A stretch of 64,000 bases of DNA from an uncultured Pseudomonadales bacterium (GCA_964437755.1 CAYTIA010000002.1:34107-98106), one strand, 5' to 3'. Positions 36,648-57,581 are shown, numbered from the stretch's first letter. Translations and numbers: made by a program. The notes: generated from the sequence alone by a model not told the origin.

Positions 36648-37082
36648 TTATTTCATTTCAACTACACAACCTGCCTCTTCCAAAACTTTCTTGGCGTTCT
36701 CGGCATCTTCTTTGTTGGCTGCTTCTAAAACTTTTTGAGGAGCACTTTCAACAAATTGTTTGGCTTCACCCAAACCTAATTCTGGTTTTAATTGGCGAAC
36801 AGCCTTAATAGCACCAATCTTGTTTGAACCACCTTCTTTAAGGATAACGTCAAACTCTGTTTGCTCTTCAACTGGAGCTCCAGCGACTGCGCCAGGAGCT
36901 GCGGCCATCATAGCAGGTGCGGCTGCACTGACACCAAACTCGTCTTCTAGAGCCTTTACAAGCTCAGAAACTTCCATTAGTGAAAGTTCTTTAACTGCGT
37001 CTACAACTTTTTGTACTTTTGCAGAAAGCTTTGACTCGGCTTTTGCTTCAGTGTTGGCTTCTTTTGTTTTTTCGTCTGCCAC
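36648..37082 (-). CDS. rplL: 50S ribosomal protein L7/L12
   Basis: [21 protein letters not shown]...[21 protein letters not shown]...[13 protein letters not shown]. About 27-aa N-terminal extension. Confidence 0.95.
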
Positions 37083-37129
37083 TGTGTACCTCCTTGGTAA
37101 TTTATTAGTTTTTAATTGATAATTACTTA

Positions 37130-37648
37130 TTAGTTTGTTTTATCAGCTATTGCTTTAAGTGCATAAACCAAATTTCTTGGACCAGCATTGAGTACGTTAA
37201 CCAATCCATAAGCTGGGCCTTGTAAACGCTGGATTAACATAACCATTAACTCGTCTTTTCCTGGTAGTTTGCTTAACTGCTCAACCTCTTGCTTGCTTAA
37301 TACCTTGATCTTGCCATCTTCTAAAATAACTCCTTGTTTAATTTCAAGTTTTTCAGATTCTTCATTAAACTCAAATAATTTTTTTAAGGCAGAAACGGCA
37401 TCTTCGTAAGAAATAACCAATGCGTTCATCCCAGTGAGCGACTCTTTAAGGGCATCTTCACCAACTGAAAGATTAATCAAGGTATTTTTAGTGACGAACA
37501 TTTCACCATTTCCTTGTTTAATCATGGCTCTAAGCTTAACTTGTTCTGAAGCGCTGGTTCCAGAGTAATCAACGATAGCAACAGATTTCGCCTGAGCTAG
37601 TTTTTCTTTAATAATCTCAATCTGCTGTTGATTGTATTGACTTGGCAT
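37130..37648 (-). CDS. rplJ: 50S ribosomal protein L10
   Basis: ORF track gives 37130..37723. The likely start is Met at 37648 ([17 protein letters not shown]). [17 protein letters not shown] matches L10. Confidence 0.9.
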
Positions 37649-37890
37649 AATGAATAAAACAATTAATACTATTTTTTGGTTTACAAAGGGTTGAGGAAGA
37701 GGTGAGAGGAAGTATTTTGTCAAAAATACTATCTAAAGAACCAATTCCCTCGGCGCGATTTTTAATTCTTGATTAAATTTTTATTTAATCAAAACCCACG
37801 CTGTCTTTGGAAACAGAAAGCAATTATACGTGATGTGAAAGAAAAATGCAAACGGCTGTTTTACATCTACTTTTTTGATATTATTATTGG

Positions 37891-39867
37891 ATGAAGAATA
37901 ACAAAATTAAGATAGTGACTTATCTGTTTTTTATATTGGTTTTGTTTTTAATTTTCCCTTCAAATACTTTTGCCAAATCTTACAAAATTGACAGAGTAAA
38001 GATTGAGGCAGAGTTAAGCCAAGATGGCTCGATGAGAGTTAAAGAAACTCGAACCTATGATTTTGACGGAAGTTATACTTTTGCATATCTAACTCTGAAT
38101 CGTTATCTCAACTTAGTCAAAAACCCAGGTAGAACAGAACCTTACAAATTGTCAGATTTTACGATTTGTGAAGACAGTGATTGTTATCAGTTGGTTGATG
38201 CCAACTCAGGAGAATCGTACAAAAATGACAAGAGTTTTTATATCCGTGAAGACAAAGAAGAGTATTACATAAAATGGTTTTATCGAGCCAACAATCAGAA
38301 AAAATCTTTTACCCTGAGCTATTTTGTAGAGAATGCTATTACTCAGCATAAAGATGTTGATGAGTTGTATTGGCAGTTTATTGGCGATGATTGGGAGATT
38401 CCGCATCATCAAATTGAGGCGGTGCTTAAGCTTAACTTTATCGATTCCAATGATGCTGATTTTGGCAATCAACTAAAAGCTTGGTTACATGGGCAAACTG
38501 GAGGAATGGTAAGTATTGGCAATGCCAACACTATAATTTTTGAGATTGACCGATTAAATGCAGGCAATTTTTTTGAGGGAAGAGTTTTGTTTCCTTACCA
38601 AACTTTTGCTAATACAGCTACTGGAACTTTGAATAGAGATAAAATTCTAGAGCAAGAAAAAGGCTTTATTCGTCAAACGCAGATGATGGAGTATGCATTT
38701 TTGGGATTATCAGCCTTGTTGGCTGTTTTTAATGTGGGATTACTCTATTTTATTTTTTGCGAAATCTCAAATTATGCAAGGTATGGTTTTGGTAAGCGTT
38801 TGCCAAAGATAAAAGTAGGGGTGTGGGAGCCTCCAAGCGATTTAAATCCAGCGCAAGTGATGCAGCTGATATCGGGAAGTAAACATCTTGGTCCATCGGC
38901 TTTTACCTCATTAGTTTTGTCGTTGGTTCAAGCAAAAAAAGCCAAGATTATCAGAAGTGATCAGAAAGAAGGCTTTTTGTTTAAAAAATATCGATATGGC
39001 TTGCAGAAGGTGAGTGACGAGTATCAACTTAAGGCGTACAACAACCTAGACAGAATCCAAGTTAAGGTATTTAATTTTATCTTTGAAAGAGCTGGCAAAG
39101 GAAAGAAAACTGTTTGGTTTAATGAGTTAACTAGTTATTGTCGGTTGCACAGCGTTGTCGCTCAAGCATTTTTTAAGGGTTTGTCTGAATCTGCTCAACA
39201 AATTAATTTAAATCAGGGTTATTTTGACCAAGAAGCATTTGATAAACTGAGTAATAAAAAATGGTGGATCTTTGCCATCTCGATGGTTGGTAGTTTTATT
39301 TTGGCTGGAATAATTATCACAAAAACTCAATCAAGCTCCCAGTTTGATGCTATTCATTCAGTTAATGCGATAGTAAGCTATTTTTTATTTGGGTTAAGTG
39401 TTGTGGTATTGAGTATTACCAGTACGAAAGTTTTAAAACGAACTGAGAAAGGAGCTCAAGAAGCTGCTAACTGGAAGGCGTTTAAAAAACACTTAAAGCA
39501 TTATAAAAAAACAAAGGAATACTCAATTGACTCGATAATCATTTGGGAAAAGTATTTGGTTTACGGAACATTGTTGGGTGTTTCAATGAAGGCTCTTTCG
39601 CAAATGCCGGTGAAATTTGATCAACTAGACAAGAGCACTGCTCATACTTTTTCATATTGGGGTGTAAGCAATAATTTTGGAGCGAGAGGCCTTAGCTCGA
39701 TTGATCTCTCGTCAATCTCATCTAGTTTGACTGAAGTTAGCCAAGCGATAAATTCTTTATCATCTGTAAGTAGTTCAAGTTATGGTGCTAGCGGAATGGG
39801 TTCTTCTGGAGGTTCTTCTGGAGGTGGTGGTGGAGGCGGCGGTGGTGGCGGTGGTGGAGCTGGATAG
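37891..39867 (+). CDS. DUF2207-like membrane protein with C-terminal poly-Gly tail
   Basis: 658 aa. Signal peptide, large extracytoplasmic domain, TM helices around residues 260-290 and 450-500. Terminal SGGSSGGGGGGGGGGGGGAG. Confidence 0.45.
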   Translation: MKNNKIKIVTYLFFILVLFLIFPSNTFAKSYKIDRVKIEAELSQDGSMRVKETRTYDFDGSYTFAYLTLNRYLNLVKNPGRTEPYKLSDFTICEDSDCYQLVDANSGESYKNDKSFYIREDKEEYYIKWFYRANNQKKSFTLSYFVENAITQHKDVDELYWQFIGDDWEIPHHQIEAVLKLNFIDSNDADFGNQLKAWLHGQTGGMVSIGNANTIIFEIDRLNAGNFFEGRVLFPYQTFANTATGTLNRDKILEQEKGFIRQTQMMEYAFLGLSALLAVFNVGLLYFIFCEISNYARYGFGKRLPKIKVGVWEPPSDLNPAQVMQLISGSKHLGPSAFTSLVLSLVQAKKAKIIRSDQKEGFLFKKYRYGLQKVSDEYQLKAYNNLDRIQVKVFNFIFERAGKGKKTVWFNELTSYCRLHSVVAQAFFKGLSESAQQINLNQGYFDQEAFDKLSNKKWWIFAISMVGSFILAGIIITKTQSSSQFDAIHSVNAIVSYFLFGLSVVVLSITSTKVLKRTEKGAQEAANWKAFKKHLKHYKKTKEYSIDSIIIWEKYLVYGTLLGVSMKALSQMPVKFDQLDKSTAHTFSYWGVSNNFGARGLSSIDLSSISSSLTEVSQAINSLSSVSSSSYGASGMGSSGGSSGGGGGGGGGGGGGAG

Positions 39868-39897
39868 AGAGATTATATTTTTTGTATATAAATACTA

Positions 39898-40839
39898 ATG
39901 ATTGCAGAAAGAGTTTTAGAAACTAAACCTAAAGAATTTCAAGAATTTCTTGATGAGCATAAAGAAGAAGTTGATGCTATTTTGGAGTCCTTGCTGCCTA
40001 AGGGTGAAGTTTTTCGCCATCCCCATTATGAATTAAAAACTTTGAACGACTATCTTTTTTGGATTAATATGGTAAAGGTTAGGATGTTTTTTCAAGAGAG
40101 TTATTCACCAGAAAGTGTAGAGGACATAGATTCTTTAATGTCATTTTTTTCTCAAGCTCATGTAATCGCAATGACTGGGAAACAGAAGCCCAAAAGAGTA
40201 GAGAGAAAAAGAGCTTCTTATAATGGCATGTCTCCAGTAGATGGAGTATCCCCAGGAAAATATCGCGATGATAGAAAAGATCGGGCAGTATTTTTTAGTG
40301 GAGTAGATTTATTAACGAAGCAAGAAATAATAAACTGGTTGCAGTCTGTTGGTTTGTCCATTAATCAATCTCAGAGAGTATCCAAAGATTTTCTTCCAAC
40401 GTTACTTTCAGGGCAAACAATAGTTTATCCCAAATCTTCTTCAATACCGCGCCTATTGTCTGAGGTTTGTTCCTCTTTAGGATTGCTTGAAATAGGATTA
40501 CTTGCTTCAGAAGAACAAAAGGTCAAGGTAATTGGATCTGTAATTCAATTTTGGGCTTCTGCTCATCCTTTCCCTATAGTAAATCATTCTTTGATTATGA
40601 ATTTTGTGAATTTTCTATTAAAGAAAAACAATCTATCGCCGGTTCCTTCTACTCAGCCGTTGTGGCCGATAGCTGTTTGTATGCAAGACAATTTTCTAGA
40701 GTACTTTTGGCGCTATTATCAGCAATACAACCTTGACTCTGAAATCTGGAAAAAACCGTACGACCCAAAGATTCACGGTGAAAAAGATGATTTGGATAAT
40801 ATTTTATTACCTGTTGAGTTACCGCGGTTGGATCTTTAA
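39898..40839 (+). CDS. Hypothetical protein
   Basis: 313-aa ORF. No motif recognised. Confidence 0.4.
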   Translation: MIAERVLETKPKEFQEFLDEHKEEVDAILESLLPKGEVFRHPHYELKTLNDYLFWINMVKVRMFFQESYSPESVEDIDSLMSFFSQAHVIAMTGKQKPKRVERKRASYNGMSPVDGVSPGKYRDDRKDRAVFFSGVDLLTKQEIINWLQSVGLSINQSQRVSKDFLPTLLSGQTIVYPKSSSIPRLLSEVCSSLGLLEIGLLASEEQKVKVIGSVIQFWASAHPFPIVNHSLIMNFVNFLLKKNNLSPVPSTQPLWPIAVCMQDNFLEYFWRYYQQYNLDSEIWKKPYDPKIHGEKDDLDNILLPVELPRLDL

Positions 40840-40864
40840 TTCTTAAGATTGTTTAGGCGCTACT

Positions 40865-41932: not shown

Positions 41933-41949
41933 TATCCTTTAGAATCTCG

Positions 41950-42906
41950 TTAATATTGACTCTGTTTTTTTCTTTTTCTAGCAACTAACACAATTCCCAG
42001 CACTGCTAGCCAAATTGGACTGTAAACTACTGCCCAGATGCCTAGTTCGGCTAAACCTCTACCAGTTAATACGAGTGATCTAACTGCTTGTCTAAAGACA
42101 ACTTTGGCACTCCAGCTTTCAGCAGGGGCGTAAGGAAGAGCCATCTCATCGGTGGCCAGATAAACCGAAACCAAGCTATAGTCAGCGCTTTCGGCAAGAT
42201 AACGACGAGTACCTTCAAGAGAATCAATCTGAGTTTGCAAGTTGAGTAACTCACGCTGAACCTCAAGCATATCACTAACTGTAAAGGCGCTACCAAGCAT
42301 CTCCTCAAACTTTCTTTTGGTTGTATTGAGAACACGAAGCCTTTCTTCAATATTTGTGTACTGCTCAGTGATATCTCTGCCTGATACATTTTCAGAAACA
42401 ACCTTAACTCCGAGGTTTCTAACGGCTGCTAAAAAATTATCAAGTTTTTCACTTTGAACTCTTACGGAAATGTAGCCAGAAGCTCCCTCTTCAGGTCGAC
42501 TAATGTTTTGATTGACCATGAAGCCTTGGTGATTAACGGCTAGCTTATTAATTTGATCTAGAACTGAACCAACATCATCAACTTTTAATGACAGGGAAGT
42601 ATCGGTAATTACTTTTCTATCAGCGCTATCATAACCTGATCCGATTGATTCTTCTGACGAACTAAAATTATCAAGAAATGTTCTTGAACTGCTGGCGGGA
42701 GCTGGCATTTGAGCTGCCATGTCATAGCTAACCATCTCGTTTTGATAAACTGAATATTTTGATTGACCAACAAAAGGAGCTGAAGCTCTAGACCTTGCTA
42801 GTAAAAAAATTATCACCACTATCAAGGCTGTGGCTAATTTATTTTGTTTAATCCAGGAAAAAATGGATGGTTTTGGCATAGTTATGAAGTGGTCAATAAA
42901 AACCAT
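41950..42906 (-). CDS. DUF4349-like membrane protein (N-terminal TM, coiled coil, C-terminal TM)
   Basis: 318 aa. N-terminal TM (LATALIVVIIFLLA). Central coiled coil. C-terminal TM (GIWAVVYSPIWLAVLGIVLVARKRKK). Confidence 0.4.
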   Translation of the reverse strand: MVFIDHFITMPKPSIFSWIKQNKLATALIVVIIFLLARSRASAPFVGQSKYSVYQNEMVSYDMAAQMPAPASSSRTFLDNFSSSEESIGSGYDSADRKVITDTSLSLKVDDVGSVLDQINKLAVNHQGFMVNQNISRPEEGASGYISVRVQSEKLDNFLAAVRNLGVKVVSENVSGRDITEQYTNIEERLRVLNTTKRKFEEMLGSAFTVSDMLEVQRELLNLQTQIDSLEGTRRYLAESADYSLVSVYLATDEMALPYAPAESWSAKVVFRQAVRSLVLTGRGLAELGIWAVVYSPIWLAVLGIVLVARKRKKQSQY

Positions 42907-42947
42907 GATTAATACTTAAAAAAAGTATAACACTTTTTTAAGTTGCG

Positions 42948-43070
42948 TGTTATAATTTTGCCACCAATGCAGCAATACTTAATAACTACTACCACTACTG
43001 CCATCTCCTGACGGAGGGTGTGGTGTTGGTGCTTATTAATACTCACAACCTCCAAACAGGAGGTTTTTTT
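42948..43070 (+). promoter_or_regulatory. thrS leader: extended -10 promoter, Thr-codon leader ORF, alternative antiterminator/terminator hairpins
   Basis: TGTTATAAT extended -10 at 42948-42956. Leader ORF 42967-43011. Hairpin CTCC-tgac-GGAG 43005-43016. GGAGGgTGTG (43013-43022) can pair with CACAaCCTCC (43044-43053). Terminator AACCTCC-aaaca-GGAGGTTTTTTT 43047-43070. Confidence 0.55.
42967..43011 (+). CDS. Candidate leader peptide MQQYLITTTTTAIS (five consecutive Thr codons)
   Basis: atg cag caa tac tta ata ACT ACT ACC ACT ACT gcc atc tcc tga, read directly from the sequence. It sits 128 nt upstream of thrS. Confidence 0.45.
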   Translation: MQQYLITTTTTAIS

Positions 43071-43138
43071 GTAGCTTATTGGCGAAACTTACTCCTGCGA
43101 AAATCCAAATTATCAATTAAAATTACTTAGAACAACAT

Positions 43139-44977
43139 ATGTCAAAAAACCCAAACCCAAATTTATCAAGCAACGAACAACAACTCTTGGCTTTACGTCA
43201 CAGCGCCGAACACGTACTTACCTACGCCATGCAGAGACTCTATGGTCAAGACAGAGTTATTATGGCAATGGGGCCAGCTACTGCCGATGGTTTTTACTTT
43301 GATTTTGATACTCCGGAAGATTTTATTGTTAATGAGCAAATGCTGGGCAAGATTGAGAAAGAGATGAAACAGTTAATCAAGGCAAATTTATCTCTGATTC
43401 AAATTAAAGTCACTTTGCCAGTGGCTCGATCGGTTTTTATTAACAATCCTTATAAGCAAGAGTGGCTTGATGGCATTGAAAGTGAAGGGGAGCAAGTTAG
43501 TTTATATCTAATGGGAACCAAAGAACAGTTAGAGAATGATCAAGCATTGTTCCAGAAAGCCCAGGATGGAGAGATCTTAGATCCTTCTATTCTGCAATCA
43601 TTTGTTGATCTGTGCAAGGGTCCTCATGTGGACTCTACAGGTGAAATAAAAGCTTTTAAGTTACTCTCAATTGCCGGTGCCTATTGGCATGGAGATGAAA
43701 AAAACAAGATGCTCACTCGTATTTATGGTACGGCTTTTAATACTCAAGAGGAACTAGATCATTATCTGTGGCAAATAGAAGAAGCTAAAAAGAGAGATCA
43801 CAAAAAAATTGGTCAGAAGCTTGGCTTGTTTATGTTTGATGAGGAGTTTGGGCAAGGCTTGCCTTTGTATAAGCCAAAAGGTGCAATGTTGCGCAAACTT
43901 ATTATGGATTTTGCTTTTGAAACATATCTCAAGCGAGGTTACCAACCAGTTTCTACGCCACATATTGCCAGGCGAGGCTTATGGGAAACTTCTGGACACT
44001 GGTTTTTTTATCGCGACTCGATTTATTCTCCAATGGAGGTCGATGGTGAGCAGTATTTGCTCAAACCAATGAACTGTCCTGGTCATGTGAAGATTTATAA
44101 CAATGATCTTCATAGTTATCGCGACTTGCCAGTTCGATTGGCAGAGATGGGCACTGTCTATCGATATGAAAAATCTGGAGAGTTAAATGGAATCTTGCGT
44201 CCACGTGGATTTACACAAGATGATGCACACATAATTTGTACCCCAGATCAGCTTCCGGCCGAACTATTAGAGGTAATCGATTTAACCAAGTTTATTTATT
44301 CGAGGTTTGGTTTTAATGATCCAGTAATCAGTTTGTCTGTTCGTGATCCAGAAAATAAATCTAAGTATATGGGGGATGATGATAGTTGGTCATTAGCCGA
44401 AAAAGCACTTGAGGAGGCCTTAATTGAAAAACAGTTGCCTTATCAAAGAATTGAGGGTGAAGCGGCTTTTTATGGTCCCAAGATAGATTTTATGTTTGAG
44501 GATGCTTTGGGTCGCAAGCAACAGCTTACCACCATCCAGGTTGATTTTAATCTGCCGGAGAAATTTGAAATGTACTACATCAACGAAAAAGGCGAAAAAC
44601 AACAGCCATTTATGTTACACAGAGCCTTATTGGGTTCTCTAGAAAGATTTATGGGAGTGTTGATTGAGCACACGGCTGGCAATTTTCCTTTCTGGTTGTC
44701 ACCAGTACAGGTAAAAGTATTGCCGATTACCGATGAGCAGATTGAATACGCTAATTCAGTAGTTGATCAGTTAAGAAAAGAAAATATTAGGGTTGAGGTT
44801 GATGATCGCAGTGCCACTTTGGGTGGCAAGATTCGTGATGCTGAAAGCGAGAGAGTTCCAGTGATGTTAATAGTTGGTGCTAGAGAAGCAGAAAGAGGTG
44901 AGGTGAGCATAAGGGAGAGAGATAAGAAGGAGCAGAGAGTAGTGAGGGTGGAGCTGTTATTGAAAGATATAGTGTAA
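43139..44977 (+). CDS. thrS: Threonyl-tRNA synthetase (lacks N-terminal TGS domain)
   Basis: 612 aa. Editing-domain HxxxH (LRHSAEHVLTYA). Class II motifs, FRDSIYSPMEVDGEQYLLKPMNCPGH, HRALLGSLERFMGVLIEHTAGNFPFWLSP. Anticodon-binding domain. Confidence 0.95.
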   Translation: MSKNPNPNLSSNEQQLLALRHSAEHVLTYAMQRLYGQDRVIMAMGPATADGFYFDFDTPEDFIVNEQMLGKIEKEMKQLIKANLSLIQIKVTLPVARSVFINNPYKQEWLDGIESEGEQVSLYLMGTKEQLENDQALFQKAQDGEILDPSILQSFVDLCKGPHVDSTGEIKAFKLLSIAGAYWHGDEKNKMLTRIYGTAFNTQEELDHYLWQIEEAKKRDHKKIGQKLGLFMFDEEFGQGLPLYKPKGAMLRKLIMDFAFETYLKRGYQPVSTPHIARRGLWETSGHWFFYRDSIYSPMEVDGEQYLLKPMNCPGHVKIYNNDLHSYRDLPVRLAEMGTVYRYEKSGELNGILRPRGFTQDDAHIICTPDQLPAELLEVIDLTKFIYSRFGFNDPVISLSVRDPENKSKYMGDDDSWSLAEKALEEALIEKQLPYQRIEGEAAFYGPKIDFMFEDALGRKQQLTTIQVDFNLPEKFEMYYINEKGEKQQPFMLHRALLGSLERFMGVLIEHTAGNFPFWLSPVQVKVLPITDEQIEYANSVVDQLRKENIRVEVDDRSATLGGKIRDAESERVPVMLIVGAREAERGEVSIRERDKKEQRVVRVELLLKDIV

Positions 44978-45046
44978 AAATCTTGAAAAGCTAATCAGCA
45001 TCTTTTATTATGATTAAAGTATTATTATTACTAATTAAGAACAAAC

Positions 45047-45565: not shown

Positions 45566-45584
45566 TTTTTAAACACTAAACAAC

Positions 45585-47920: not shown

Positions 47921-48148
47921 ATGATTAAGATAACCACAAAAAAACTTTTAAGTGAGATCACGCTGTTTTTAATTGATCAACTTGAAAAAAATGAGATATC
48001 TATAGGTAGAGTTAAGAAAATATCTCGACAGATTTTGGCTGTTTTTCCAGATGAAAAGTGTGATAAAGATGAATTTCCAGTTGAGGTATTATCGCAGTTA
48101 ATAGAAATACCTGAAATTGATACCTTTTTTCAACAAAAGAAATGGTAG
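47921..48148 (+). CDS. Hypothetical small protein, translationally coupled to giant gene
   Basis: 75 aa. Stop overlaps start of 48142 ORF (ATGGTAG). Confidence 0.35.
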   Translation: MIKITTKKLLSEITLFLIDQLEKNEISIGRVKKISRQILAVFPDEKCDKDEFPVEVLSQLIEIPEIDTFFQQKKW

Positions 48149-51100
48149 CAGAAACGCCTCATCAAGAAGTAAACGCAGCCCAATCAAGGGAAGGAGAGTT
48201 TAGATTACGCGATTTATTAAGTGTTTTAAAAAGAGTAGCAGGACAAGAACCTCGGGTGGTACTTGCAACTTTTGTTAATATTGATGAATTTTTACCAACT
48301 GAGCAACAAAAGCAGCTAGTTAGTGAATTGCGTTGGGATCTTGGTGAAAAGAGAAAAACATATCGAAAATTTAAAGAGGCAGGAGTGAATCCTGAAAAGG
48401 CTCTGGATTTAATTGAATATCTTCAGAATGAGATACAGTTTTGCTCAGAGAAAGAGGAAGGTGAAGATAAGTCATGTGCGGGAGAAAAGATCTGTAAAAA
48501 TTACCGATATGAAGAAGGAGATTTTAGATATATTTGTAAATTGATTTCTCTTTCTGATGATCCAATTCAGCTTGTGATAGATATGGGGGAATTATTAGAT
48601 TTTAATGGTTATTATTCCTATCCATCAAGATTTATTTATCATCTTGCAGAATATGCAGAATCATTTTATCAAGCTCAACTTTCTCCACATTATCCTGAGG
48701 TTATTTCTTTAATAGGGGAGTTTTCAGGTGAGTCAGTTAAGATTAATTTCTCCGATTCTTCTTTTCGGTTCAACGAACAAGCTCAAAGAGACGAAAGACA
48801 ATTGAATAGAGTATATAGAGCAGTTCAAGATCCAGTGATTGTATTATCTAACATGGATCAGGTTGAGTTTAAGGGATTGTCCAATGGAGAAAATGTAAGG
48901 AGAGCAAAAGAGCTGTGGAATGAAATGTCTCAAGGAAAGAGTTTAAGGATAGAGTATATTCCAGAGTTATTAACCCTAGCTAATGATACTCAGCTTGCAA
49001 TTGGTTTTAAAGAAATGCTTGCTTACGATGGTCGATTAATGACGAAGATATACGAACAAGAACCTCAACAATTTGCTATTGCCATTGCGCGATTAAAAAA
49101 ACTCAAAGATGAAGTGCCTGAATTATGGGATCTACTTAAGTCTGGCTTTGATATTTCATGGTCATTTGACTATCCTCGTATGTATGGTTCAGATCCTCTT
49201 GATGTTTCGCAAATAGCTCAGCGTAGATACTCGTTTCAAGAAATATTGGCTAGTCAAAAACTAGTAACAAATGCACAGATTGTAGCTAGATATGATGATG
49301 AAAAATTAGAGGCAAGATCTTCCTTTGACGATATTTCTGATTATAAAAGGTATCGTTATACTTCCGATCCAGAAACTCTTGAGAAGAGTTATATTGCAGC
49401 TTATTCACTTGGACAGATATTTCAAAGATCGCGTTTTTCTGACATAAATAGGTACTATTTATGGCAAAACATAACTGAAACTGGCTGTCTAGATCATTTA
49501 TCAATTGAACAACTCAATCAGTTATTTACCCCTTTTGCTCAACTCATAGCAACAAAAGACTCTTCTTTTGTGGATGTTTTAGCTAAGATGGAGCCAAAGC
49601 TTTCTGATGTTATTGGATTAAGTCCCTCATTGGTTGAAGCTAAGGACCGTTTGGAGAAATTGTTATCAGATGAGATGCGGCTAATTGTGTCTGATAAGTC
49701 TTTTATGGATACTGTTTTTGGTGGAGAAATCTCTGGAGCAAGAGACTGGGAATTGATTCTTTCCAATTTGGATCAATATTATCAGCTCTTTCAAAAAAAA
49801 GATGAATTAGAGGCAAAAATTCATCTGTTAGAACACCCCGAATCAGGAGGGTATAGAGTTTCTGTCACTAGAGATTTGCAATTACTATTTTTAGTTTTAG
49901 AAATACCAGATTCGGTTTTAATCGAAATGTCAGAAGAGTCTGCCTCTTTACATCTAACGGTGAATTCAGATGCTGTAAGAAGATATATCTCTTACAGACT
50001 TCTCACTGATGCTGAAAAACAACAACTGCTTGATGGTGTTGGCAGTCAAAAGTATCAAAATGCAATCAAAAGTATTTACGATACAAGACTAAGCCTTACT
50101 GATCTAAGAAAATATATTATGCTTGATTCTGAAAAAAAAGACAAAGTTTGGGAGATGGTAACTCAGTTAGAAGCGGAATTGCACATTAGTGTGGCAAATT
50201 TTAGTGATACTAATGATCTTATCGGATTTCCTCTTGGGTTTTTATGTGAGTTGGTATCAAGCGACTCACTTTATGTGACTTTTGAGAATTTTATCTCTCA
50301 TGTTTTAGATGAACAAGACGATTCGATTGATTCTAATGGCAGACTTAAATGTTTTAGAATATGTGCAATTTTGTTAGCTAATCATCAACAAGATTTAGAA
50401 TTTAATTTTAATGAATATATTACACCACAGGGAGTACCTACTTCAAAGTTATTACTTGAGTTAGCTAATTCCAATCTTACAAATTTACACTGGGTGAGAC
50501 CATATATAACTGATCAATCCTTGCAGGAGATGGAGGAAGACGATCGAAACTTCTGGAAATTTTGGATTACTTTTAATGATGATACAAATTTCCAAAGATA
50601 TCTGCTTGAAAATAAATCAAGATTTGCTGAGTGGATTCAGGATGGAGTGGCGACACACGCTTTTATCTTGGAATTAGCTAGAAACAATCTTGCCGGAATC
50701 GGAACGATTCAAAAACTAATTGAACCAGCTTTATTAAAGATGTCGAAAGATGAAACAGACTTTTGGTCTTTTTGGAAAACATCTTCAGCTGTTGAGAGGA
50801 GGGTGATTACTTCGAATAATGAGCGCTTTTCCCAGCTAGTTGTTGAAGGCGTTCCTACTGCAGTTTTCTATGAATTGGTTGCTAAAGAAAGTCCAGAACA
50901 TTTCATGGAAAACTATGACATCAATGATCTTGCCTCTGACTTAGATCAGAGAACTAGATTTAGAGAAATTGTTTTACAAGCTTTTATTGATAAACATACT
51001 CAGAATCCATATTTTCAAATGGTTTATCGTTTATTAAAAGGAGAGATTGCCGACAGGGGTGTAATAAGTGAATCAATTAAAGAGATGTTTAATCAGGGCT

Positions 51101-53061
51101 ATGGCATGGAGGTTGATGAAGAGTTTGTCACAACTCTTGATCAGTATATAGAAAATTCTCAAGAAGAAAAATACAATCCTATCATTCCAGATAGAGAGGC
51201 CTTTTGGAATGAAAATATACGAATATATTTAGCAGTAAGGAAACTCAAATGGACAATTAATGGATTTGAAAGATTTAGGAGTCTCGTCCAAAATTCTGCT
51301 GTTAATCAAATTTTAAGTGATGAAGGAAATATTGTTCGTTTGCAACAAATATCACCAAAAATTGGGTTAAATGCTAATAATATTTTTTATGTGAATAGTA
51401 CCTCGTTGTTATGGTTGTACGAGAATTCTTCAGTTGAACCTTGTGTTGGATTTTTTAGAAGAATTCTTAATGAGAAGCCAACAAGTTTGAATAGTTGCGC
51501 CTTAACCTTTAGTCAGATTTCTGAAGGAAAAAGAGCTTTACTTTTTACAGATCCTTTATACCAAGAAAGGTTATTTGAAGCGATGGGAGAGTTTAAGAAT
51601 GTCGTTCCATCTTTAATTGACGGCTATGTTTTAGAAGACGATTTAAATGAAAGAGTTGCTTTTAGAGAAAAAATTAACGAGTTTAGAAGACGAGTTCATC
51701 GGAACCTACCGATTTTAGACCTTGTAAAGAATTATGAAGATAGAAGAACTATTGCTGACATGATTGCTCTTACCTTTCCTGGAACAAATCAAGGTGGTAT
51801 CTTGTCACAGATTGAGATGGCAGGCGATAGGTGTGATGATCTTAAGGAACTAACTATCAGGGATGAAGGTTATGTTGGTCAAATCTTTTCTAGAGAGAAG
51901 ATGGTTATTTTGAGGGAGGCTAATCAGCCAATTGACGAGGGAATAATCAATTTATTAAGATCAGTATTTTCTCTTCCCCAAGAAAGACCACAAAATCAGG
52001 ACAAAGAGGCTCAACTAGCATCTAAAGGTTGGTCAAGGCTAATCAAAGAAGCTGGTTCAACTAAAAGTGAAGTATTTTTAGCTACAGCTATGAGCGAGGC
52101 TATTGCCTGTGTACGAGTGGCCATGGGTGAAAAAGTTGAACAGTTCTATGAAATGATCTCAAGGGATCTTTCTCAGGTACAAAGTAAAGCAGAGTTGTTA
52201 ACAAAAGCTAAAGAGTTGTTTGGTATTTATTATAAGGATAATGCAACTGAGGCAATTGATCAGTTCTTGACTCAAAATTCAGATATTGAGCAGCGACTTT
52301 TAGGACAGCTATCACCAAAAAGAATTCAAGCATTAGAAAAAAACATCGGTTCTTCGAGAACAATAAGTGAAGCTAAAAGACAAGAATTTTTGCAGATTAT
52401 AATCAATTTAAAAGATCCTCAAACTCCTGAAGTAAAAAGAAAAGCATTGGCTGGATTGTTAGCATTTTTATCAGAGAGGGGTTTGTTTGCTGGTAGCCAG
52501 GGTTTGCGTAAAAAAGTAGATAATGAGTTGGCCAAGTTGGTTTTAGTAGATAAAGAGGGAGAGGATGCAGTAGATGAATCATTGTTACTAAGAGGTTTTG
52601 CTACAAAAAATGCAGCTTCCTTTTTTGCTAAAACTACAGCTGGTATTTGTACAGCTCAAGACTTTGGTTTATATCATCGACCAGATCATTTTCATATAAA
52701 TCTAATTAATCAAGAAGATGTTGTGGTGGGAAATATTCAAGGGTATTTGGTCGAAGATTTTGAGGGCGAAAGAGCCGTAATATTTAGAGGTTTTAACCCT
52801 TCATCCAGCATTGTTAGTTCAACTAATGCTGCGGTTATTTGTGATCAAATGGTAAGTATTGTGAGGCAGCTTGCCGCAGACAATGGAATAAAACACGTTT
52901 TAATACCCCAGCAAAATAATTGGCATCCACTAACCAATCGAGTTGGTGAGGGAATAGTTGAATATTTTGCCTCTCGTTTTTATAAAGAAGAAAATAAAGT
53001 TGATTTTCAATTTAATATTACTGAAACGCAGGAAGTGAATACTTTTTATAAGATGGCCTAG
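48142..53061 (+). CDS. Giant hypothetical protein (1639 aa) with internal tandem repeats
   Basis: Uninterrupted 4.9-kb ORF, no signal peptide or TM. At least two about 70-aa tandem repeats (GVPTSKLLLELANSN..EEDDRNFWKFWITF..NKSRFAEWIQD and GVATHAFILELARNN..KDETDFWSFWKTS..NNERFSQLVVE), with a third partial copy. C-terminal about 130 aa with conserved-looking Cys/His/Asp positions (GICTAQDFG..HRPDHFH..). Confidence 0.6.
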   Translation: MVAETPHQEVNAAQSREGEFRLRDLLSVLKRVAGQEPRVVLATFVNIDEFLPTEQQKQLVSELRWDLGEKRKTYRKFKEAGVNPEKALDLIEYLQNEIQFCSEKEEGEDKSCAGEKICKNYRYEEGDFRYICKLISLSDDPIQLVIDMGELLDFNGYYSYPSRFIYHLAEYAESFYQAQLSPHYPEVISLIGEFSGESVKINFSDSSFRFNEQAQRDERQLNRVYRAVQDPVIVLSNMDQVEFKGLSNGENVRRAKELWNEMSQGKSLRIEYIPELLTLANDTQLAIGFKEMLAYDGRLMTKIYEQEPQQFAIAIARLKKLKDEVPELWDLLKSGFDISWSFDYPRMYGSDPLDVSQIAQRRYSFQEILASQKLVTNAQIVARYDDEKLEARSSFDDISDYKRYRYTSDPETLEKSYIAAYSLGQIFQRSRFSDINRYYLWQNITETGCLDHLSIEQLNQLFTPFAQLIATKDSSFVDVLAKMEPKLSDVIGLSPSLVEAKDRLEKLLSDEMRLIVSDKSFMDTVFGGEISGARDWELILSNLDQYYQLFQKKDELEAKIHLLEHPESGGYRVSVTRDLQLLFLVLEIPDSVLIEMSEESASLHLTVNSDAVRRYISYRLLTDAEKQQLLDGVGSQKYQNAIKSIYDTRLSLTDLRKYIMLDSEKKDKVWEMVTQLEAELHISVANFSDTNDLIGFPLGFLCELVSSDSLYVTFENFISHVLDEQDDSIDSNGRLKCFRICAILLANHQQDLEFNFNEYITPQGVPTSKLLLELANSNLTNLHWVRPYITDQSLQEMEEDDRNFWKFWITFNDDTNFQRYLLENKSRFAEWIQDGVATHAFILELARNNLAGIGTIQKLIEPALLKMSKDETDFWSFWKTSSAVERRVITSNNERFSQLVVEGVPTAVFYELVAKESPEHFMENYDINDLASDLDQRTRFREIVLQAFIDKHTQNPYFQMVYRLLKGEIADRGVISESIKEMFNQGYGMEVDEEFVTTLDQYIENSQEEKYNPIIPDREAFWNENIRIYLAVRKLKWTINGFERFRSLVQNSAVNQILSDEGNIVRLQQISPKIGLNANNIFYVNSTSLLWLYENSSVEPCVGFFRRILNEKPTSLNSCALTFSQISEGKRALLFTDPLYQERLFEAMGEFKNVVPSLIDGYVLEDDLNERVAFREKINEFRRRVHRNLPILDLVKNYEDRRTIADMIALTFPGTNQGGILSQIEMAGDRCDDLKELTIRDEGYVGQIFSREKMVILREANQPIDEGIINLLRSVFSLPQERPQNQDKEAQLASKGWSRLIKEAGSTKSEVFLATAMSEAIACVRVAMGEKVEQFYEMISRDLSQVQSKAELLTKAKELFGIYYKDNATEAIDQFLTQNSDIEQRLLGQLSPKRIQALEKNIGSSRTISEAKRQEFLQIIINLKDPQTPEVKRKALAGLLAFLSERGLFAGSQGLRKKVDNELAKLVLVDKEGEDAVDESLLLRGFATKNAASFFAKTTAGICTAQDFGLYHRPDHFHINLINQEDVVVGNIQGYLVEDFEGERAVIFRGFNPSSSIVSSTNAAVICDQMVSIVRQLAADNGIKHVLIPQQNNWHPLTNRVGEGIVEYFASRFYKEENKVDFQFNITETQEVNTFYKMA

Positions 53062-53128
53062 AGATAAACATATTTCTAATTGGTTATAGAACACGCATAT
53101 TGATAGCACTTTCAAACTAGTTAGCAAA

Positions 53129-53332
53129 ATGAAAATCTATATGAAAAAAGCATTACCAACTCAAGTATATAGAATCTTGATGACTATATTAAATAGGCTT
53201 GAAAAAGGAGAAATTGATCTACCTGAGGCTTCTAAACAAGCAAAGATAATCAAAAGGGTTCTTAATGAGATAGATAGTAATGGTCAACAAAAAGCTTTAG
53301 ATTTATTAAATCAACTATCAAAAGAATTATGA
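53129..53332 (+). CDS. Hypothetical small protein
   Basis: 67 aa. Stop overlaps next start (ATGA). Confidence 0.3.
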   Translation: MKIYMKKALPTQVYRILMTILNRLEKGEIDLPEASKQAKIIKRVLNEIDSNGQQKALDLLNQLSKEL

Positions 53333-54048
53333 GCCAAGAAGAGTTGTTGACGATTTTGGCTACCCCACAAGCTGAAAAAAGCAATGGAACGACTTCTGCT
53401 TTAGAAATATATCATCAGTTAAAACAAGTAGAAAAACAGGTTCTTCTTGATCCAAGAATGTCAAGTGAAGTATTGATTGCTTTCACAAGGATTGTCCATA
53501 ATCTTCCTAACTTTGATTTTTCAAGGAACGATGAGTTTGAAATAAGTGAGCCGATAATTATCAATGGTGTATCCATGAGTTTAAGTTTGTTAATCAAAAC
53601 TGATCCAGACAAATTAGACAGATGTTTAACCGCGAGACTCAGTTTTAATTTATCAGATAACGATAACCCCTTTTCATCACCAATGATTGATAAACCAATG
53701 GGAATCTTAGACTCTGGAGAGCTCTGTTGTAGAGAGATAAGATTTAACTCAAAAAAATCAACAACACTAGTTGAAGGAGTTTCAAGATCGAGGTCAGTTG
53801 AAATAACGAGAGGTTTACCAACTCAACTTTTTCTTTTGGCTCATTTTTTAACAAGAGCATTGATAGCAAAAAGTAAATTTTCAGGAAAAATTTTGGCAAT
53901 TATTGAAGATGCCGCCGTAGATCAAAAAACTAGAACTTCTTCTGGTTGGTCTGGTCGTAGGGCTACCGAAATAGGTTTTAAAAAAAGTAGGTTCCACCAA
54001 CTTTTGTTGAGGAGCTCTCATCCTTGTTATACTTATCAGTATCAATGA
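53329..54048 (+). CDS. Hypothetical protein
   Basis: 239-aa ORF, no motif. Confidence 0.4.
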   Translation: MSQEELLTILATPQAEKSNGTTSALEIYHQLKQVEKQVLLDPRMSSEVLIAFTRIVHNLPNFDFSRNDEFEISEPIIINGVSMSLSLLIKTDPDKLDRCLTARLSFNLSDNDNPFSSPMIDKPMGILDSGELCCREIRFNSKKSTTLVEGVSRSRSVEITRGLPTQLFLLAHFLTRALIAKSKFSGKILAIIEDAAVDQKTRTSSGWSGRRATEIGFKKSRFHQLLLRSSHPCYTYQYQ

Positions 54049-54068
54049 AAACTGTATTTTGAACAATT

Positions 54069-55223
54069 ATGACTAAAGAAGATCGTAATGAAAGATTGGG
54101 AATTGGGGAAAGACTTAATTCACTTATAAAACAACTAAGAGCTCTTCTTGATCAGGGTAGGGGGTCAGAGGTGTTAGATATTTTGGCAGAAGTTGTACCT
54201 GATGAAGAACCCGTTGGCGAAGAAAATGCTGATGACGCAGAACTCGATCTTTTTCCAGGTGATGAGATCTTTTGGAATCCTGAGCTAAGATCAGTTGAAT
54301 CTCAAAAAATGATTCCCAGATCAGAAGATGATCAAGAAGCTCAGCAGCATCAAGAACAACAGGGGAGTATCTTGAAGAGTAAAGAGGAAATAGCTGAAAA
54401 AATATCTCCAGCAGACTGTGTTGAAAAAGCAACAATGTATTGCAGGTTGGTTGATAATGCTCACTTACCTAAAGAATTAATGAAACTGGTTATAGATCGT
54501 TTGGTGCTTTGGAAATTAATTGACCTCAATGATATTTCTGATAATATTTTTGAAAATTATCATCAATTTAGTGGTTTTATAAAAAATGTGCAAAGAGTAA
54601 GAATCGCTCAGCATAATAGTGAATTTATCAATGCTTTTAATAATGACCCATGGAATGGAGAGCCAATTGAGGCAGAATACACAGATGACGAGCTCGGAAA
54701 ATGGCCGTATCTCCATTTAGAAGCAATTAAAAAAAGTCTGGGAGATTCTTCGAAGTTTATTTTTAGAGTACAAAAGAATTTTTTTACAATGGTGCTTACA
54801 GAGCAAGATGATGGCTCAAGACAAATTGTAAGGCTAGCATCTTCCCAGAGGTCACAAGATCAGGTTCAAAATGATGTTTTAAATATGCCAGATATAATTC
54901 CAAAAACCGAAATAATTGCAGTTGGAAATAATGAGTATGTTATGTTAATTGAATGGATAAATGGAAAGACTCCGCAGACAGAGGCAGAAAAATTGAGGTG
55001 CTATCAAGCAGCGGAGGCTCTTTTAGTAGTGCCAATTGGAGAAGAAAATTTATATGACTTAAACTCAGGAAATTTTCTTATTGTGAATAATGATGGAGTC
55101 GAAAAAATTTACTATGTTGATAGAGATATACCAGCGAGTATTGTAAAAAATGGATTAGACCCAGATGGAGTTGAGTCAAGAAGAAATCAGTTTGAACGAT
55201 CAAAGAATGAGAAAGTTCGCTAA
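54069..55223 (+). CDS. Protein with C-terminal protein-kinase-like (APH/Kdo/RIO-type) fold domain and acidic N-terminal region
   Basis: 384 aa. C-terminal region has hinge-like VMLIEWINGKT, catalytic-loop-like DLNSGNFLIVNNDG (compare DLHPGNILV) and metal-binding-like YYVDRD (compare IDFG/IDWE). Confidence 0.4.
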   Translation: MTKEDRNERLGIGERLNSLIKQLRALLDQGRGSEVLDILAEVVPDEEPVGEENADDAELDLFPGDEIFWNPELRSVESQKMIPRSEDDQEAQQHQEQQGSILKSKEEIAEKISPADCVEKATMYCRLVDNAHLPKELMKLVIDRLVLWKLIDLNDISDNIFENYHQFSGFIKNVQRVRIAQHNSEFINAFNNDPWNGEPIEAEYTDDELGKWPYLHLEAIKKSLGDSSKFIFRVQKNFFTMVLTEQDDGSRQIVRLASSQRSQDQVQNDVLNMPDIIPKTEIIAVGNNEYVMLIEWINGKTPQTEAEKLRCYQAAEALLVVPIGEENLYDLNSGNFLIVNNDGVEKIYYVDRDIPASIVKNGLDPDGVESRRNQFERSKNEKVR

Positions 55224-55260
55224 CAACAATTTTCTCTATATTTAGTCAACTCCAAATCTT

Positions 55261-56058
55261 TTACTCTTCCCACTCAACTTTAACTCCGGGACTCATGGAG
55301 GCGGCAATAATCACCTTAACGAGTCTTCCCTTAAAAGCTTTAAATAAAGCCTGTAAGTTTTCAACTAAATGAGCTGTTTCCATATCTGTTTTACCAATGG
55401 ATACATGCATGAGTGGAGCTTTTCTTTCGGTTTTAAGCATCATGCTACCTGCTTGAAGCTCTTTTTGTCTTTGTTCCGGATTGGTAGTAAGGGTACCGCT
55501 TTTTGGATTTGGCATTAGGCCTTTTGGACCCAAAACTGGAGCAAACTTGGTTAATTTAGCCATGAACTGAGGGGTAGAGATCAAGACATCAAAGTCGATG
55601 TTATTGTTCTCTATCTTTTTTAAAGTTTCTTCTGAGGCAATCTCAACCACTTTTGACTGTCCGGTGGAATGGGGTAGAGAGATTTCTTTACTAATACCAA
55701 TTTCTCTAACTGTAAGGTGAGCAGAAATAGTACCGACAAATTTAGAATATGAAAGTTTCTTAACTAATTCCACAGCTGACTCTGCATCATAGCTTTTTGT
55801 TCGATCTACTTTTGAGCGAACTGCCTGATATTTTTTACTTCTGTGTTTTATTTTTTTTAAAGTTGGTGTCTTTTTTACTTCCTCTTGATTTGATTCAACC
55901 ACTGTTTCAGCACCATCTGCCACTTGCGTAACTTCTTTTACTACTTTCTCTTCAGCTTTTGGTTTTTCAGCTTTGGTTTTTTTTGCAACTTTTTTAGTTT
56001 TCTCTTTTTTTTCTTCTGTCATTTTTGTAGACATATCAACTGGTTTTTTTGATCCCAT
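55261..56058 (-). CDS. rplA: 50S ribosomal protein L1 with about 65-aa Lys/Glu-rich N-terminal extension
   Basis: FDVLISTPQFMAKLTKFAPVLGPKGLMPNPKSGTLT and LPHSTGQSKVV match L1. N-terminus MGSKKPVDMSTKMTEEKKEKTKKVAKKTKAEKPKAEEK. Confidence 0.9.
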   Translation of the reverse strand: MGSKKPVDMSTKMTEEKKEKTKKVAKKTKAEKPKAEEKVVKEVTQVADGAETVVESNQEEVKKTPTLKKIKHRSKKYQAVRSKVDRTKSYDAESAVELVKKLSYSKFVGTISAHLTVREIGISKEISLPHSTGQSKVVEIASEETLKKIENNNIDFDVLISTPQFMAKLTKFAPVLGPKGLMPNPKSGTLTTNPEQRQKELQAGSMMLKTERKAPLMHVSIGKTDMETAHLVENLQALFKAFKGRLVKVIIAASMSPGVKVEWEE

Positions 56059-56196
56059 AAAAAAATCTCCTTAAGATAATTATTTTGTAATAGTAATATT
56101 TATTTATATAATTTTGTTCTCGTAACGCATCCGCTCTTGAGGAAACAGACGCTGGAACATTTTTTTCTTTAGTTAGAAGATAATTTCTTTTGTCTT

Positions 56197-56619
56197 CTAT
56201 ACAATCTTCACACCCATACTTTTAGCTGAACCCATAACGGTTTTAATTGCAGCATCAATATCTGTGGTATTAAGATCTGGCAATTTAGTTTCAGCTATTT
56301 GCTTGACCTGATCCATGGTTAGCTCACCGATAATATTAGTTTTTGGTTCTTTACTACCTTGTTTTTTGCCAATGACTTTGAGAATCATGGCTGAAACTGG
56401 AGGTAACTTAAGTTCAAAAGTAAAAGATCGATCTTGATAAACGGTAATTTCTGCAGGAATAATCTCGCCACGCTTATCGGCTGTTTTATCATTGTACTGC
56501 TTGATGAAGTCCATCATGTTGATACCAGCTTGACCCAAAATAGGTCCAACTGGCGGAGCGGGCGTGGCTGCTCCTGCAGGTAAATTTAATTTAAGAACAT
56601 TAAGTATTTTTTTTGCCAT
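56197..56619 (-). CDS. rplK: 50S ribosomal protein L11
   Basis: PAGAATPAPPVGPILGQAGINMMDFIKQYN...TFELKLPPVSAMILK matches L11. Confidence 0.95.
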   Translation of the reverse strand: MAKKILNVLKLNLPAGAATPAPPVGPILGQAGINMMDFIKQYNDKTADKRGEIIPAEITVYQDRSFTFELKLPPVSAMILKVIGKKQGSKEPKTNIIGELTMDQVKQIAETKLPDLNTTDIDAAIKTVMGSAKSMGVKIV

Positions 56620-56682
56620 AATTCTTTCTAAGTTGGTTATTCTATCATAATTTAATTAAATGACGGTCAAATATACTAGAAA

Positions 56683-57369
56683 CTAGATTTTTTCAACTTG
56701 TAAAAAATCAAGCTCAACTGGGGTTTCTCTTCCAAAAATATTAATTAATACAGTTACTTGAGCCTTGTTCTCATCTATCTTTTGAACTGTGCCCAAGAAC
56801 TCGTTAAATGGACCATCGGTAATTTTAACTGCCTCACCCTCGGTGTACTCAGCTTTGTATTGAGGAGTTGCTTGTTGAGCATACTTAGTGATGGCATCAA
56901 CCTCATATGCTGGAATTGGGCTAGGACGGCTACTAGCACCGACAAAACCCGTTACTCCTTGAGTAGTACGAACTGCTAACCAAGCATCATCTTCCATAAT
57001 CATATTGACCAACATGTATCCTGGAAAAACCTTTTCGGTGATGGTTTTTCTTTGACCTTTACGAATCTGAATTTTTTCTCTGGTTGGAATTAAAACCTTA
57101 ATAATTTTGTCGGTAAGATTTAGGGTAGTGGCGCGTTGTTTTAGAGTTTCAGCTACTTTGTTTTCTCTACCCGAATAGGTGTGAACTACATACCAATGAG
57201 CTTTGTCATTATCCTCATCGGCAATACGAACCAAATTTGGATCGTTGACTTCAACCTCCTGGACATCAGGAACTTTTGGAGTATTGGTGTTATCTGTGTT
57301 TCCCAGTTGCTCGGGGACTTCTTCTGGCTGTTTATCTTGAGTTGTTTGTGTAGTTTGATCTGTCATCAC
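56683..57369 (-). CDS. nusG: Transcription termination/antitermination factor NusG (with about 55-aa N-terminal low-complexity extension)
   Basis: WYVVHTYSGRENKV NGN domain and C-terminal KOW (GEAVKITDGPFNEFLGTVQKID). Confidence 0.9.
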   Translation of the reverse strand: MMTDQTTQTTQDKQPEEVPEQLGNTDNTNTPKVPDVQEVEVNDPNLVRIADEDNDKAHWYVVHTYSGRENKVAETLKQRATTLNLTDKIIKVLIPTREKIQIRKGQRKTITEKVFPGYMLVNMIMEDDAWLAVRTTQGVTGFVGASSRPSPIPAYEVDAITKYAQQATPQYKAEYTEGEAVKITDGPFNEFLGTVQKIDENKAQVTVLINIFGRETPVELDFLQVEKI

Positions 57370-57389
57370 ATTGATTTTAACTGTTAATA

Positions 57390-57581
57390 CTAATTGACCA
57401 GTGCCAGCATTATTTGTTGGAGTAGATAATCAACTCCGCCAATATAGGTTGCTGTAACGATACTAATTACAATTACCAATACAGTTTGATTAATTGTTTG
57501 TATCTTACTTGGCCAACTTACTTTCTTGAGTTCGATAATAACCTGCTTGATGTACTTTTTGATGAATTTCATATAAATCAA
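57390..57581 (-). CDS. secE: Preprotein translocase subunit SecE
   Basis: 63 aa. ELKKVSWPSKIQTINQTVLVIVISIV: conserved WP motif followed by a single TM. Confidence 0.8.
   Translation of the reverse strand: MIYMKFIKKYIKQVIIELKKVSWPSKIQTINQTVLVIVISIVTATYIGGVDYLLQQIMLALVN

Follow-up and report, generated by a model that had tools for sequence, protein, structure and literature searches.

A ribosomal protein gene neighborhood divided by opposite-strand thrS in a Microgenomates-like bacterium: evidence for an inherited modular gene order

Introduction

In Escherichia coli, the rplKA (L11) and rplJL (L10) operons each have their own promoter and autoregulator. Here we analyze the corresponding genes, together with secE and nusG, in a 64,000-nucleotide stretch of DNA from an uncultured bacterium (GCA_964437755.1, CAYTIA010000002.1:34107-98106; this whole stretch is called the window), in which rplA and rplJ are set far apart by a group of genes that includes the aminoacyl-tRNA synthetase gene thrS on the opposite strand. 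We consider it highly probable that this split is the ancestral gene order of a Microgenomates clade within the Candidate Phyla Radiation (CPR), inherited as a set of units whose spacers repeatedly gain and lose genes, and not a recent break.

Several described systems are close to parts of this locus. In E. coli, thrL and pheM-pheST are leader-peptide attenuators, of which pheM controls an aminoacyl-tRNA synthetase gene, and a thrU-tyrU-glyT-thrT tRNA array lies upstream of tufB-secE. Attenuation through thrL-thrS has been proposed for Streptomyces lividans (PMC8079986). The L10(L12)4 leader, which mimics the rRNA site by a kink-turn, is widespread, and the boundary between the L11 and L10 operons of E. 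coli, each with its own controls, has been described (PMC3616713). Splits between rplKA and rplJL have been noted in Bradyrhizobium and Actinomyces in a published survey (bioRxiv 10.1101/2025.04.14.645983).

Results and Discussion

A divided neighborhood common to the clade

Gene identities were assigned from six-frame open reading frames (ORFs) and a Pfam scan of the window (Table 1). The six genes secE, nusG, rplK, rplA, rplJ and rplL are all present on the minus strand, with the relative order and common strand of the same genes in the E. coli L11 and beta operons; the start of rplJ was placed, by comparison of N-termini, at the ATG common to all relatives. The end of rplA at 55261 and the start of rplJ at 37648 are 17,612 bp apart, and the Pfam-mapped genes thus bear out the split of this neighborhood that the original prediction had read from the sequence. 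From rplJ to rplA, the gap holds ORFs for a DUF2207 protein (+), proteins of 313 aa (+) and 355 aa (-), a DUF4349 protein (-), thrS (+), proteins of 172 aa (+), 222 aa (+) and 515 aa (-), and finally proteins of 75, 1639, 67, 239 and 384 aa (all +). These 13 ORFs comprise three on the minus strand and ten of at least 67 aa on the plus strand; the earlier count of eleven plus-strand and three minus-strand genes is reached once the 14-codon thrS leader ORF is added.

Two further departures that had been predicted were likewise found. Downstream of rplL, a terminator-like hairpin is followed by a convergent PKD-domain gene, and the whole window contains no rpoB; the hairpin could serve as a bidirectional intrinsic terminator at the end of the rplJL unit. 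On the other side, rpmG is on the opposite strand to secE and is separated from it by a Cys-rich membrane ORF and two tRNA-Thr genes. The split falls exactly at the boundary between the L11 and L10 operons of E. coli. Unlike in the E. coli locus, rplA and rplJ of the window are separated by 17.6 kb with 13 ORFs, rplL is not followed by rpoBC, and rpmG and the tRNA genes are inverted. It thus departs from the canonical cluster in contiguity, rpoBC linkage and rpmG orientation, and the whole clade does so in common.

The L10 homologues at 78-81% identity carry the names ‘Microgenomates bacterium 39_7’ and ‘Candidatus Woesebacteria bacterium’, the GC content is ~36%, and many ORFs in the window belong to no family. 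Judged from these sequences, with taxon names taken from a few named proteins only, the organism is a Microgenomates/Woesebacteria-like CPR bacterium. For comparison, contigs were taken for L10 homologues at 91, 85, 80, 78, 71, 66, 64, 64 and 62% identity, together with 80 metagenome loci from an L1 alignment and one relative from a genome collection (88% L1 identity); all were mapped by tblastn, and loci are referred to by number. The L1 search of the genome collection yielded this one close relative and two distant controls.

The clade order, secE-nusG-rplK-rplA, opposite-strand thrS, rplJ-rplL, MerR, WecG(-), MurL, MurD, MreB(-) and PEGA, holds in every locus with an L1 identity of at least 47% and enough sequence. 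Opposite-strand thrS lies between rplA and rplJ in all nine relatives that carry both (L10 identity 52-78%). Three further loci (L011, L098, L020) reach thrS on one side and agree in order, two (L008, L100) agree up to their contig ends, and the sequence of L097 (85% L10 identity) stops short of both thrS and rplA; in L100, the neighbor of DUF2207 is a 681-aa gene instead of rplJ. Where rplL is present (12 of 12 clade loci), it is followed by MerR, with WecG and MurL where sequence extends, and not by rpoB. The rpmG gene is again on the opposite strand in relatives, and an opposite-strand tRNA-Thr(GGT)-(tRNA-Tyr)-tRNA-Thr(UGU)-rpmG unit was found in each of the five loci that extend far enough upstream and that a tRNA scan covered. 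The gap itself varies widely in size, measuring 2.8 kb in L019, 3.0 kb in L016, 3.1 kb in L012, 3.9 kb in L014, 5.9 kb in L099, 6.9 kb in L018, 7.2 kb in L017, 7.4 kb in L015 and 9.2 kb in L013; that of the window is the largest seen.

Beyond the clade the picture changes. Among more distant CPR-like loci (L1 identity 39-46%), L022, L029, L031, L034 and L037 have rplA and rplJ side by side or almost so, and L024, L025 and L054 have other fillings without thrS; rpoB is again not found after rplL, where L031 carries MerR. A sample of metagenome loci from still more remote bacteria (L1 identity below 38%), neither random nor non-redundant, comprises 29 contiguous arrangements, many with rpoBC, and 3 split ones, with 14 further loci having no rplJ or rplL within at least 2 kb of available downstream sequence. 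The rplA-rplJ junction is breakable, as these loci show, and together with the published splits (bioRxiv 10.1101/2025.04.14.645983) they make the earlier statement that the cluster is contiguous in nearly all bacteria an overstatement. The window resembles Bradyrhizobium diazoefficiens and Actinomyces israelii in having extra genes at the rplKA/rplJL junction, and differs from them in that those splits involve other phyla and other genes, whereas here an opposite-strand thrS is conserved and rpoBC is also unlinked (bioRxiv 10.1101/2025.04.14.645983). Extra genes between rplKA and rplJL are therefore already known; thrS as their conserved occupant, in this lineage, appears to be undescribed.

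Because they are common to the relatives with enough sequence, the split, the rpmG inversion and the lack of rpoB are best read as ancestral to the clade, as would be the presence of thrS in the gap. The classical neighborhood would then be divided at natural operon boundaries into self-contained units: (membrane ORF)-secE-nusG-rplK-rplA; opposite-strand thrS, under its own promoter and a leader-peptide attenuator with Thr codons; rplJ-rplL, which has a conserved promoter of its own, an L10-leader-like motif and a terminator; and opposite-strand tRNA-Thr-(Tyr)-Thr-rpmG. The rpoBC genes would lie elsewhere in the genome. Since each unit would carry its own controls, DNA between the units would be tolerated, and the spacers on either side of thrS, like the one after rplL, may have repeatedly gained and lost lineage-specific genes.

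A predicted leader-peptide attenuator upstream of thrS

An attenuator had been assigned to thrS in the original prediction, and this assignment holds: the window contains a leader ORF, a terminator and an antiterminator, and a leader ORF of 14-18 codons with 4-7 consecutive Thr codons, followed by a terminator, occurs in the window and in 11 of 12 relatives. In the window, an antiterminator segment GGAGGGUGUG (43013-43022) can pair with CACAACCUCC (43044-43053), and a competing terminator, AACCUCC-AAACA-GGAGGUU (43047-43065), is followed by U7. The features expected of such an attenuator, namely a short ORF with a run of the regulatory codon and a terminator with a mutually exclusive antiterminator ahead of the gene, are thus all present. 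The leader peptides of the relatives end or read as ..SITTTTTTIS (L011), MKFLVRTTTTTTTIPAGE (L013), MVFVQMTTTTSTTNPSRG (L014), ..RFTTTTTTTC (L015), MMKFVMAATATTTTIPG (L016), MLLKKFLLPTTTTTTMKR (L017), MLIRLSLAATTTTR (L018), MKMNLLITTTTTIPE (L019), MRKQSLITTTTTNS (L098) and MQHKILATTTTTSS (L099). Leaders were folded as free RNA and with a ribosome footprint on either the Thr run or the stop codon; seven of nine formed the antiterminator when the footprint covered the Thr run and the terminator in the other two states. Scarcity of charged tRNA-Thr would stall the ribosome at the Thr codons and thereby favor the antiterminator over the terminator.

The leader transcript is probably leaderless: its ATG lies 10 nt after the -10 box in the window and 7-10 nt after it in the eight leaders read, where the -10 is often extended, and this short distance suggests a leaderless start. 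The succession of a short ORF with many cognate codons, alternative antiterminator and terminator hairpins and then the gene is that of E. coli thrL and pheM-pheST, and as in pheM-pheST and S. lividans thrS the controlled gene encodes an aminoacyl-tRNA synthetase. The suggested leaderless start of the clade leaders is a further likeness to Streptomyces. Unlike the S. lividans leader, with two Thr codons and no clear terminator (PMC8079986), those of the clade have 4-7 consecutive Thr codons and a clear U-tailed terminator. They also differ from known leader-peptide attenuators in belonging to a CPR lineage and in matching no Rfam family, the comparison of the thrS leader with Rfam having given no meaningful match. 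A literature search found no report of ribosome-mediated attenuation in CPR bacteria, nor of so clear a thrS case, and searches that combined Microgenomates or Patescibacteria with rplJ, synteny or attenuation found nothing.

An L10-leader-like motif upstream of rplJ

The promoter-like site upstream of rplJ is followed by a motif of the form AAGACAGCGUG-variable hairpin-UCGCGCCGAGG, and both promoter and motif are conserved in all ten clade sequences compared (the window and nine relatives, L011-L019). The inner stem shows one compensatory change, from GCGUG/CGCGC to GUGUG/CACAC. In a local scan of 221 nt with Rfam RF00557, the core consensus aligned at 22.8 bits (E 0.061). The motif therefore has both the position in the rplJ 5' untranslated region (UTR) and the kink-turn core sequence of an L10 leader, its core AAGACAG...stem...UUAA..AUC..GCCGAGG aligning with the Rfam consensus and its stems fitting a kink-turn-like internal loop (PMC3616713). 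It differs from RF00557 in its score and in that the terminator part of the Rfam model is unmatched. Rfam scans of the region, at the gathering threshold and at E ≤ 1, returned tRNAs only, with no T-box, Thr_leader or L10_leader. The rplJ leader motif is presumably an L10-L12 autoregulatory operator. GACAG and CCGAGG, suitably spaced upstream of rplJ, were also observed in 7 of 10 more distant CPR-like loci (L024, L025, L031, L034, L037, L039, L054).

Genes accumulated in the spacers

In an all-against-all comparison of gap ORFs from 14 loci, thrS was the sole family common to the gaps across the clade, and the remaining content appears in steps. DUF2207 occupies the thrS-rplJ spacer from the relative at 71% identity onward (L099, L098, L097, L011, L100) and is missing from L012. 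The ORFan block next to rplA is confined to the closest relatives (L011, L008, L100); among 5.8 billion proteins, its 1639-aa protein has four other homologues (89, 66, 65 and 65% identity), which adjoin rplA wherever context was read (L011, L008, L100). Compared with the compact relatives (2.8-3.9 kb), the window has ~14 kb of additional genes, lying at two sites, one on each side of thrS, and the spacer downstream of rplL, the third of its kind, acquired GNATs, PKD and other genes. The gap ORFs diverge fast, at 50-74% identity where L10 is 91% identical. Stepwise accretion at the two spacers beside thrS is the best description of this filling; in the window's genus, DUF2207, DUF4349, hypothetical ORFs and an ORFan block of ~10 kb may have accumulated, presumably neutrally, enlarging a gap of ~3 kb to 17.6 kb.

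None of the ten gap ORFs without a family had a match at curated cut-offs in Pfam, PHROGs, PADLOC or NCBIfam; there were only a few marginal matches, those in the ORFan block being limited to two short ORFs. Sequence searches of the PDB with the 384-aa and 1639-aa proteins found no match. Single-sequence AlphaFold models of the 384-aa protein (pLDDT 34.5) and of the C-terminal 439 aa of the 1639-aa protein (45.2) were unusable. By eye, a kinase-like catalytic-loop pattern (YDLNSGNFLIV...YYVDRD) can be seen in the 384-aa ORF, and a similar one in a 250-aa ORF farther along the window; neither profile searches of the two nor the PDB search of the 384-aa protein gave support, and the resemblance is an impression only. 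A genuine Pkinase gene occurs in the rplA-thrS spacer of L015.

Alternative explanations

The original prediction took the arrangement to indicate local rearrangement or insertion, that is, a recent event that broke a contiguous rplKAJL cluster in this genome. For the filling this idea has merit, given that the gap is the largest seen, that compact relatives lack ~14 kb of its content and that the two ORFs between thrS and the 515-aa ORF are missing even from the relative at 91% L10 identity. For the break itself it fails, since synteny comparison found the identical arrangement in relatives, the outcome that had been named as refuting a recent break: the split, thrS in the gap, the inverted rpmG and the lack of rpoB are common to relatives down to 52% L10 and 45% L1 identity. 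The inserted genes, moreover, have native composition and codon usage, with a GC content of 0.35-0.37, as in the flanks, and codon-frequency correlations with flanking genes of 0.89-0.95, so that the proposed comparison of block and flanks revealed nothing foreign. We regard a recent break as very improbable. Mis-assembly, in the form of a chimeric contig joined at 37.7 kb and 55.2 kb, had also been raised and deserves thought for a metagenome-assembled genome of an uncultured organism. The exact L10 protein, however, was found on six contigs that were assembled independently, with different pipelines and from different samples (ENA, JGI, Logan), all with the identical opposite-strand neighbor upstream, at the rplJ/DUF2207 junction, and the rplL-PKD arrangement downstream; one 10-kb contig spans thrS through PKD. 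The exact L1 protein occurs on one further contig, with opposite-strand 384-aa and 239-aa neighbors as in the window, and the L011 (120 kb) and L100 (41 kb) contigs carry the layout as far as they extend. Because both junctions recur in independent assemblies, an artefact of this kind is exceedingly unlikely.

Another possibility is that the block at 45-55 kb, beside rplA, is a horizontally acquired island or mobile element, for instance a defense island or what is left of a prophage. Its eight consecutive ORFs without a curated-threshold family match, its giant protein, its restriction to one genus-level group and its fast divergence (59-74% identity where L10 is 91%) are what one might expect of such an element. 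Yet Pfam, PHROGs, PADLOC and NCBIfam gave no integrase, transposase, phage or defense match among the gap ORFs; repeat searches found neither flanking direct or inverted repeats nor island borders, with chance-level matches only, and no tRNA lies at the block borders. With GC content and codon usage matching the host and a position that is stable in all relatives whose context was read, the block lacks the recombinase, the repeats or tRNA target and the foreign composition that mark genomic islands or mobile elements, and we think acquisition of this kind improbable. It is also improbable that selection holds thrS between rplKA and rplJL, through shared dosage or local co-regulation of translation genes, the nearby tRNA-Thr genes included. 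Over deep divergence thrS has kept its place and orientation while its surroundings turned over, and the tRNA-Thr genes lie 14 kb away in the same neighborhood. Against this, thrS is on the opposite strand with its own promoter and attenuator and so cannot be co-transcribed with the ribosomal genes; the conserved linkage of ~20 kb includes the unrelated MerR, WecG, MurL, MurD and MreB, for which reason general synteny retention suffices to account for thrS; and the sister CPR-like loci L031 and L054 are without thrS here.

Several points also weigh against the reading that we prefer, an inherited gene order divided into self-contained units. Relatives were ordered by their L1 and L10 identity instead of by a phylogeny, and the reading as ‘ancestral’ is therefore one of parsimony across ~14 contigs that all descend from a single syntenic region. 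Promoters, terminators and unit boundaries come from consensus scans; the counts of promoter and terminator sites are not enriched over shuffled sequence, and such sites were used only where conserved in relatives. The L10-leader score lies below the Rfam gathering score of 44, L012 has no recognizable Thr leader, and L017 and L019 do not switch cleanly in the simple folding model.

Strand asymmetry

The GC skew at third codon positions has the same sign for genes of both strands, the strand coding for the ribosomal proteins being C-rich. This pattern was seen in the window and in each of 15 CPR-like loci of relatives that were tested (L011-L019, L024, L025, L031, L054, L099, L100), apart from the minus-strand genes of L016, whose skew is near zero; canonical non-CPR loci have the opposite skew in 13 of 22. 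By the usual rule, secE-nusG-rplKA and rplJL would presumably be on the lagging strand, head-on to replication, lineage-wide.

Neighboring features

The Cys-rich membrane ORF upstream of secE is weakly conserved at the equivalent place in L012 and L099. Beyond it, the two tRNA-Thr genes and rpmG form a co-oriented unit divergent from secE, and tRNA-Trp follows on the plus strand beyond rpmG. The array in the window and relatives resembles the thrU-tyrU-glyT-thrT array of E. coli, with no tuf gene here; the tRNA-Tyr of the Thr-Tyr-Thr array of L016-L019 has been lost from the window and from L012. At their 3' ends, rpmG and a convergent ORF share 136 nt; this ORF is DUF6938-like and 517 aa long, and its homologues in relatives are called at ~459-468 aa and stop before or at rpmG; the C-terminal tail of the window ORF may be read-through and not true coding sequence. 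The N-terminus of rplA has a clade-wide, low-complexity Lys/Glu-rich extension of ~50-70 aa that opens with a conserved MGSKK, and the Pfam L1 model covers only residues 145-245. The block MerR-WecG(-)-MurL-like epimerase-MurD-MreB(-)-PEGA trails rplL across the clade. Precomputed Pfam matches to PF26299 and PF26298 (MurL) exist for homologues of a 459-aa ORF of the window, to which our own Pfam scan gave no annotation.

Table 1. Coordinates of genes and predicted elements at the divided ribosomal protein locus, counted from the first letter of the window.
Feature	Coordinates	Strand	Basis and distribution
Window site of the MerR-WecG-MurL-like block	28033-29412	-	
GC-rich hairpin AAAACCACCCC-TTAT-GGGGTGGTTTT	36592-36617		A and T runs on both sides; between PKD gene and rplL
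rplL (L7/L12)	36648-37082	-	Pfam PF00542 and PF16320
rplJ (L10)	37130-37648	-	Pfam PF00466; ORF open to 37723
rplJ promoter-like site TTTGCA-18-TATAAT (37852-37823) and L10-leader-like motif	37725-37852	-	Promoter scan
DUF2207 membrane protein	37891-39867	+	Pfam
Hypothetical ORF, 313 aa	39898-40839	+	Closest relatives only (L011, L008, L100)
Hypothetical ORF, 355 aa	40865-41932	-	Weak sub-threshold Pfam matches; closest relatives only (L011, L008, L100)
DUF4349 membrane protein	41950-42906	-	Also L098, L011, L100; first appears at 80% (L098)
thrS leader	42927-43072	+	Extended -10 promoter 42927-42956; 14-codon ORF MQQYLITTTTTAIS, then stop, 42967-43011
thrS	43139-44977	+	Pfam; only gene common to the rplA-rplJ gaps of all clade members
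Two hypothetical ORFs, 172 and 222 aa	45047-46253	+	Unique to window; absent even from L011 (91% L10)
Hypothetical ORFan, 515 aa	46293-47840	-	ORF call, no family
ORFan block, 75, 1639 (48142-53061), 67, 239 and 384 aa	47921-55223	+	
ORF of 384 aa (within the block)	54069-55223	+	
rplA (L1)	55261-56058	-	Pfam
rplK (L11)	56197-56619	-	Pfam
nusG	56683-57369	-	Pfam
secE	57390-57581	-	Pfam
Cys-rich membrane ORF, 254 aa	57694-58458	-	
tRNA-Thr(GGT), tRNA-Thr(UGU), rpmG unit	58776-59243	+	
tRNA array of that unit	58776-58958	+	
rpmG	59040-59243	+	
DUF6938-like ORF, 517 aa	59108-60661	-	
ORF of 250 aa	61133-61885	+	

Implications

The striking departure from textbook order would be an inherited CPR layout, split at known operon boundaries, and such a split is not to be taken as a sign of recent insertion, horizontal transfer or mis-assembly. 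We lean towards viewing the locus as an ancient modular one within the clade, combining a conserved and apparently leaderless thrS attenuator, thrS spacers that act as long-lived hotspots for lineage-specific genes, a genus-restricted 1639-aa protein among them, and a ribosomal protein neighborhood on the C-rich, presumably lagging, strand lineage-wide. Its order of rplA, opposite-strand thrS, rplJL and then MerR-WecG-MurL is usable as a synteny marker for the Microgenomates clade, and the ORFan block may be a place where genus-specific genes accumulate. Of greater interest than the split are three by-products of the comparison: the Thr attenuator, the variant L10 leader and the asymmetry between strands. 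The attenuator would imply tight coupling of transcription and translation in these organisms, and with the L10-leader-like operator, likewise predicted, it would mean that classical cis-regulation persists in reduced CPR genomes.

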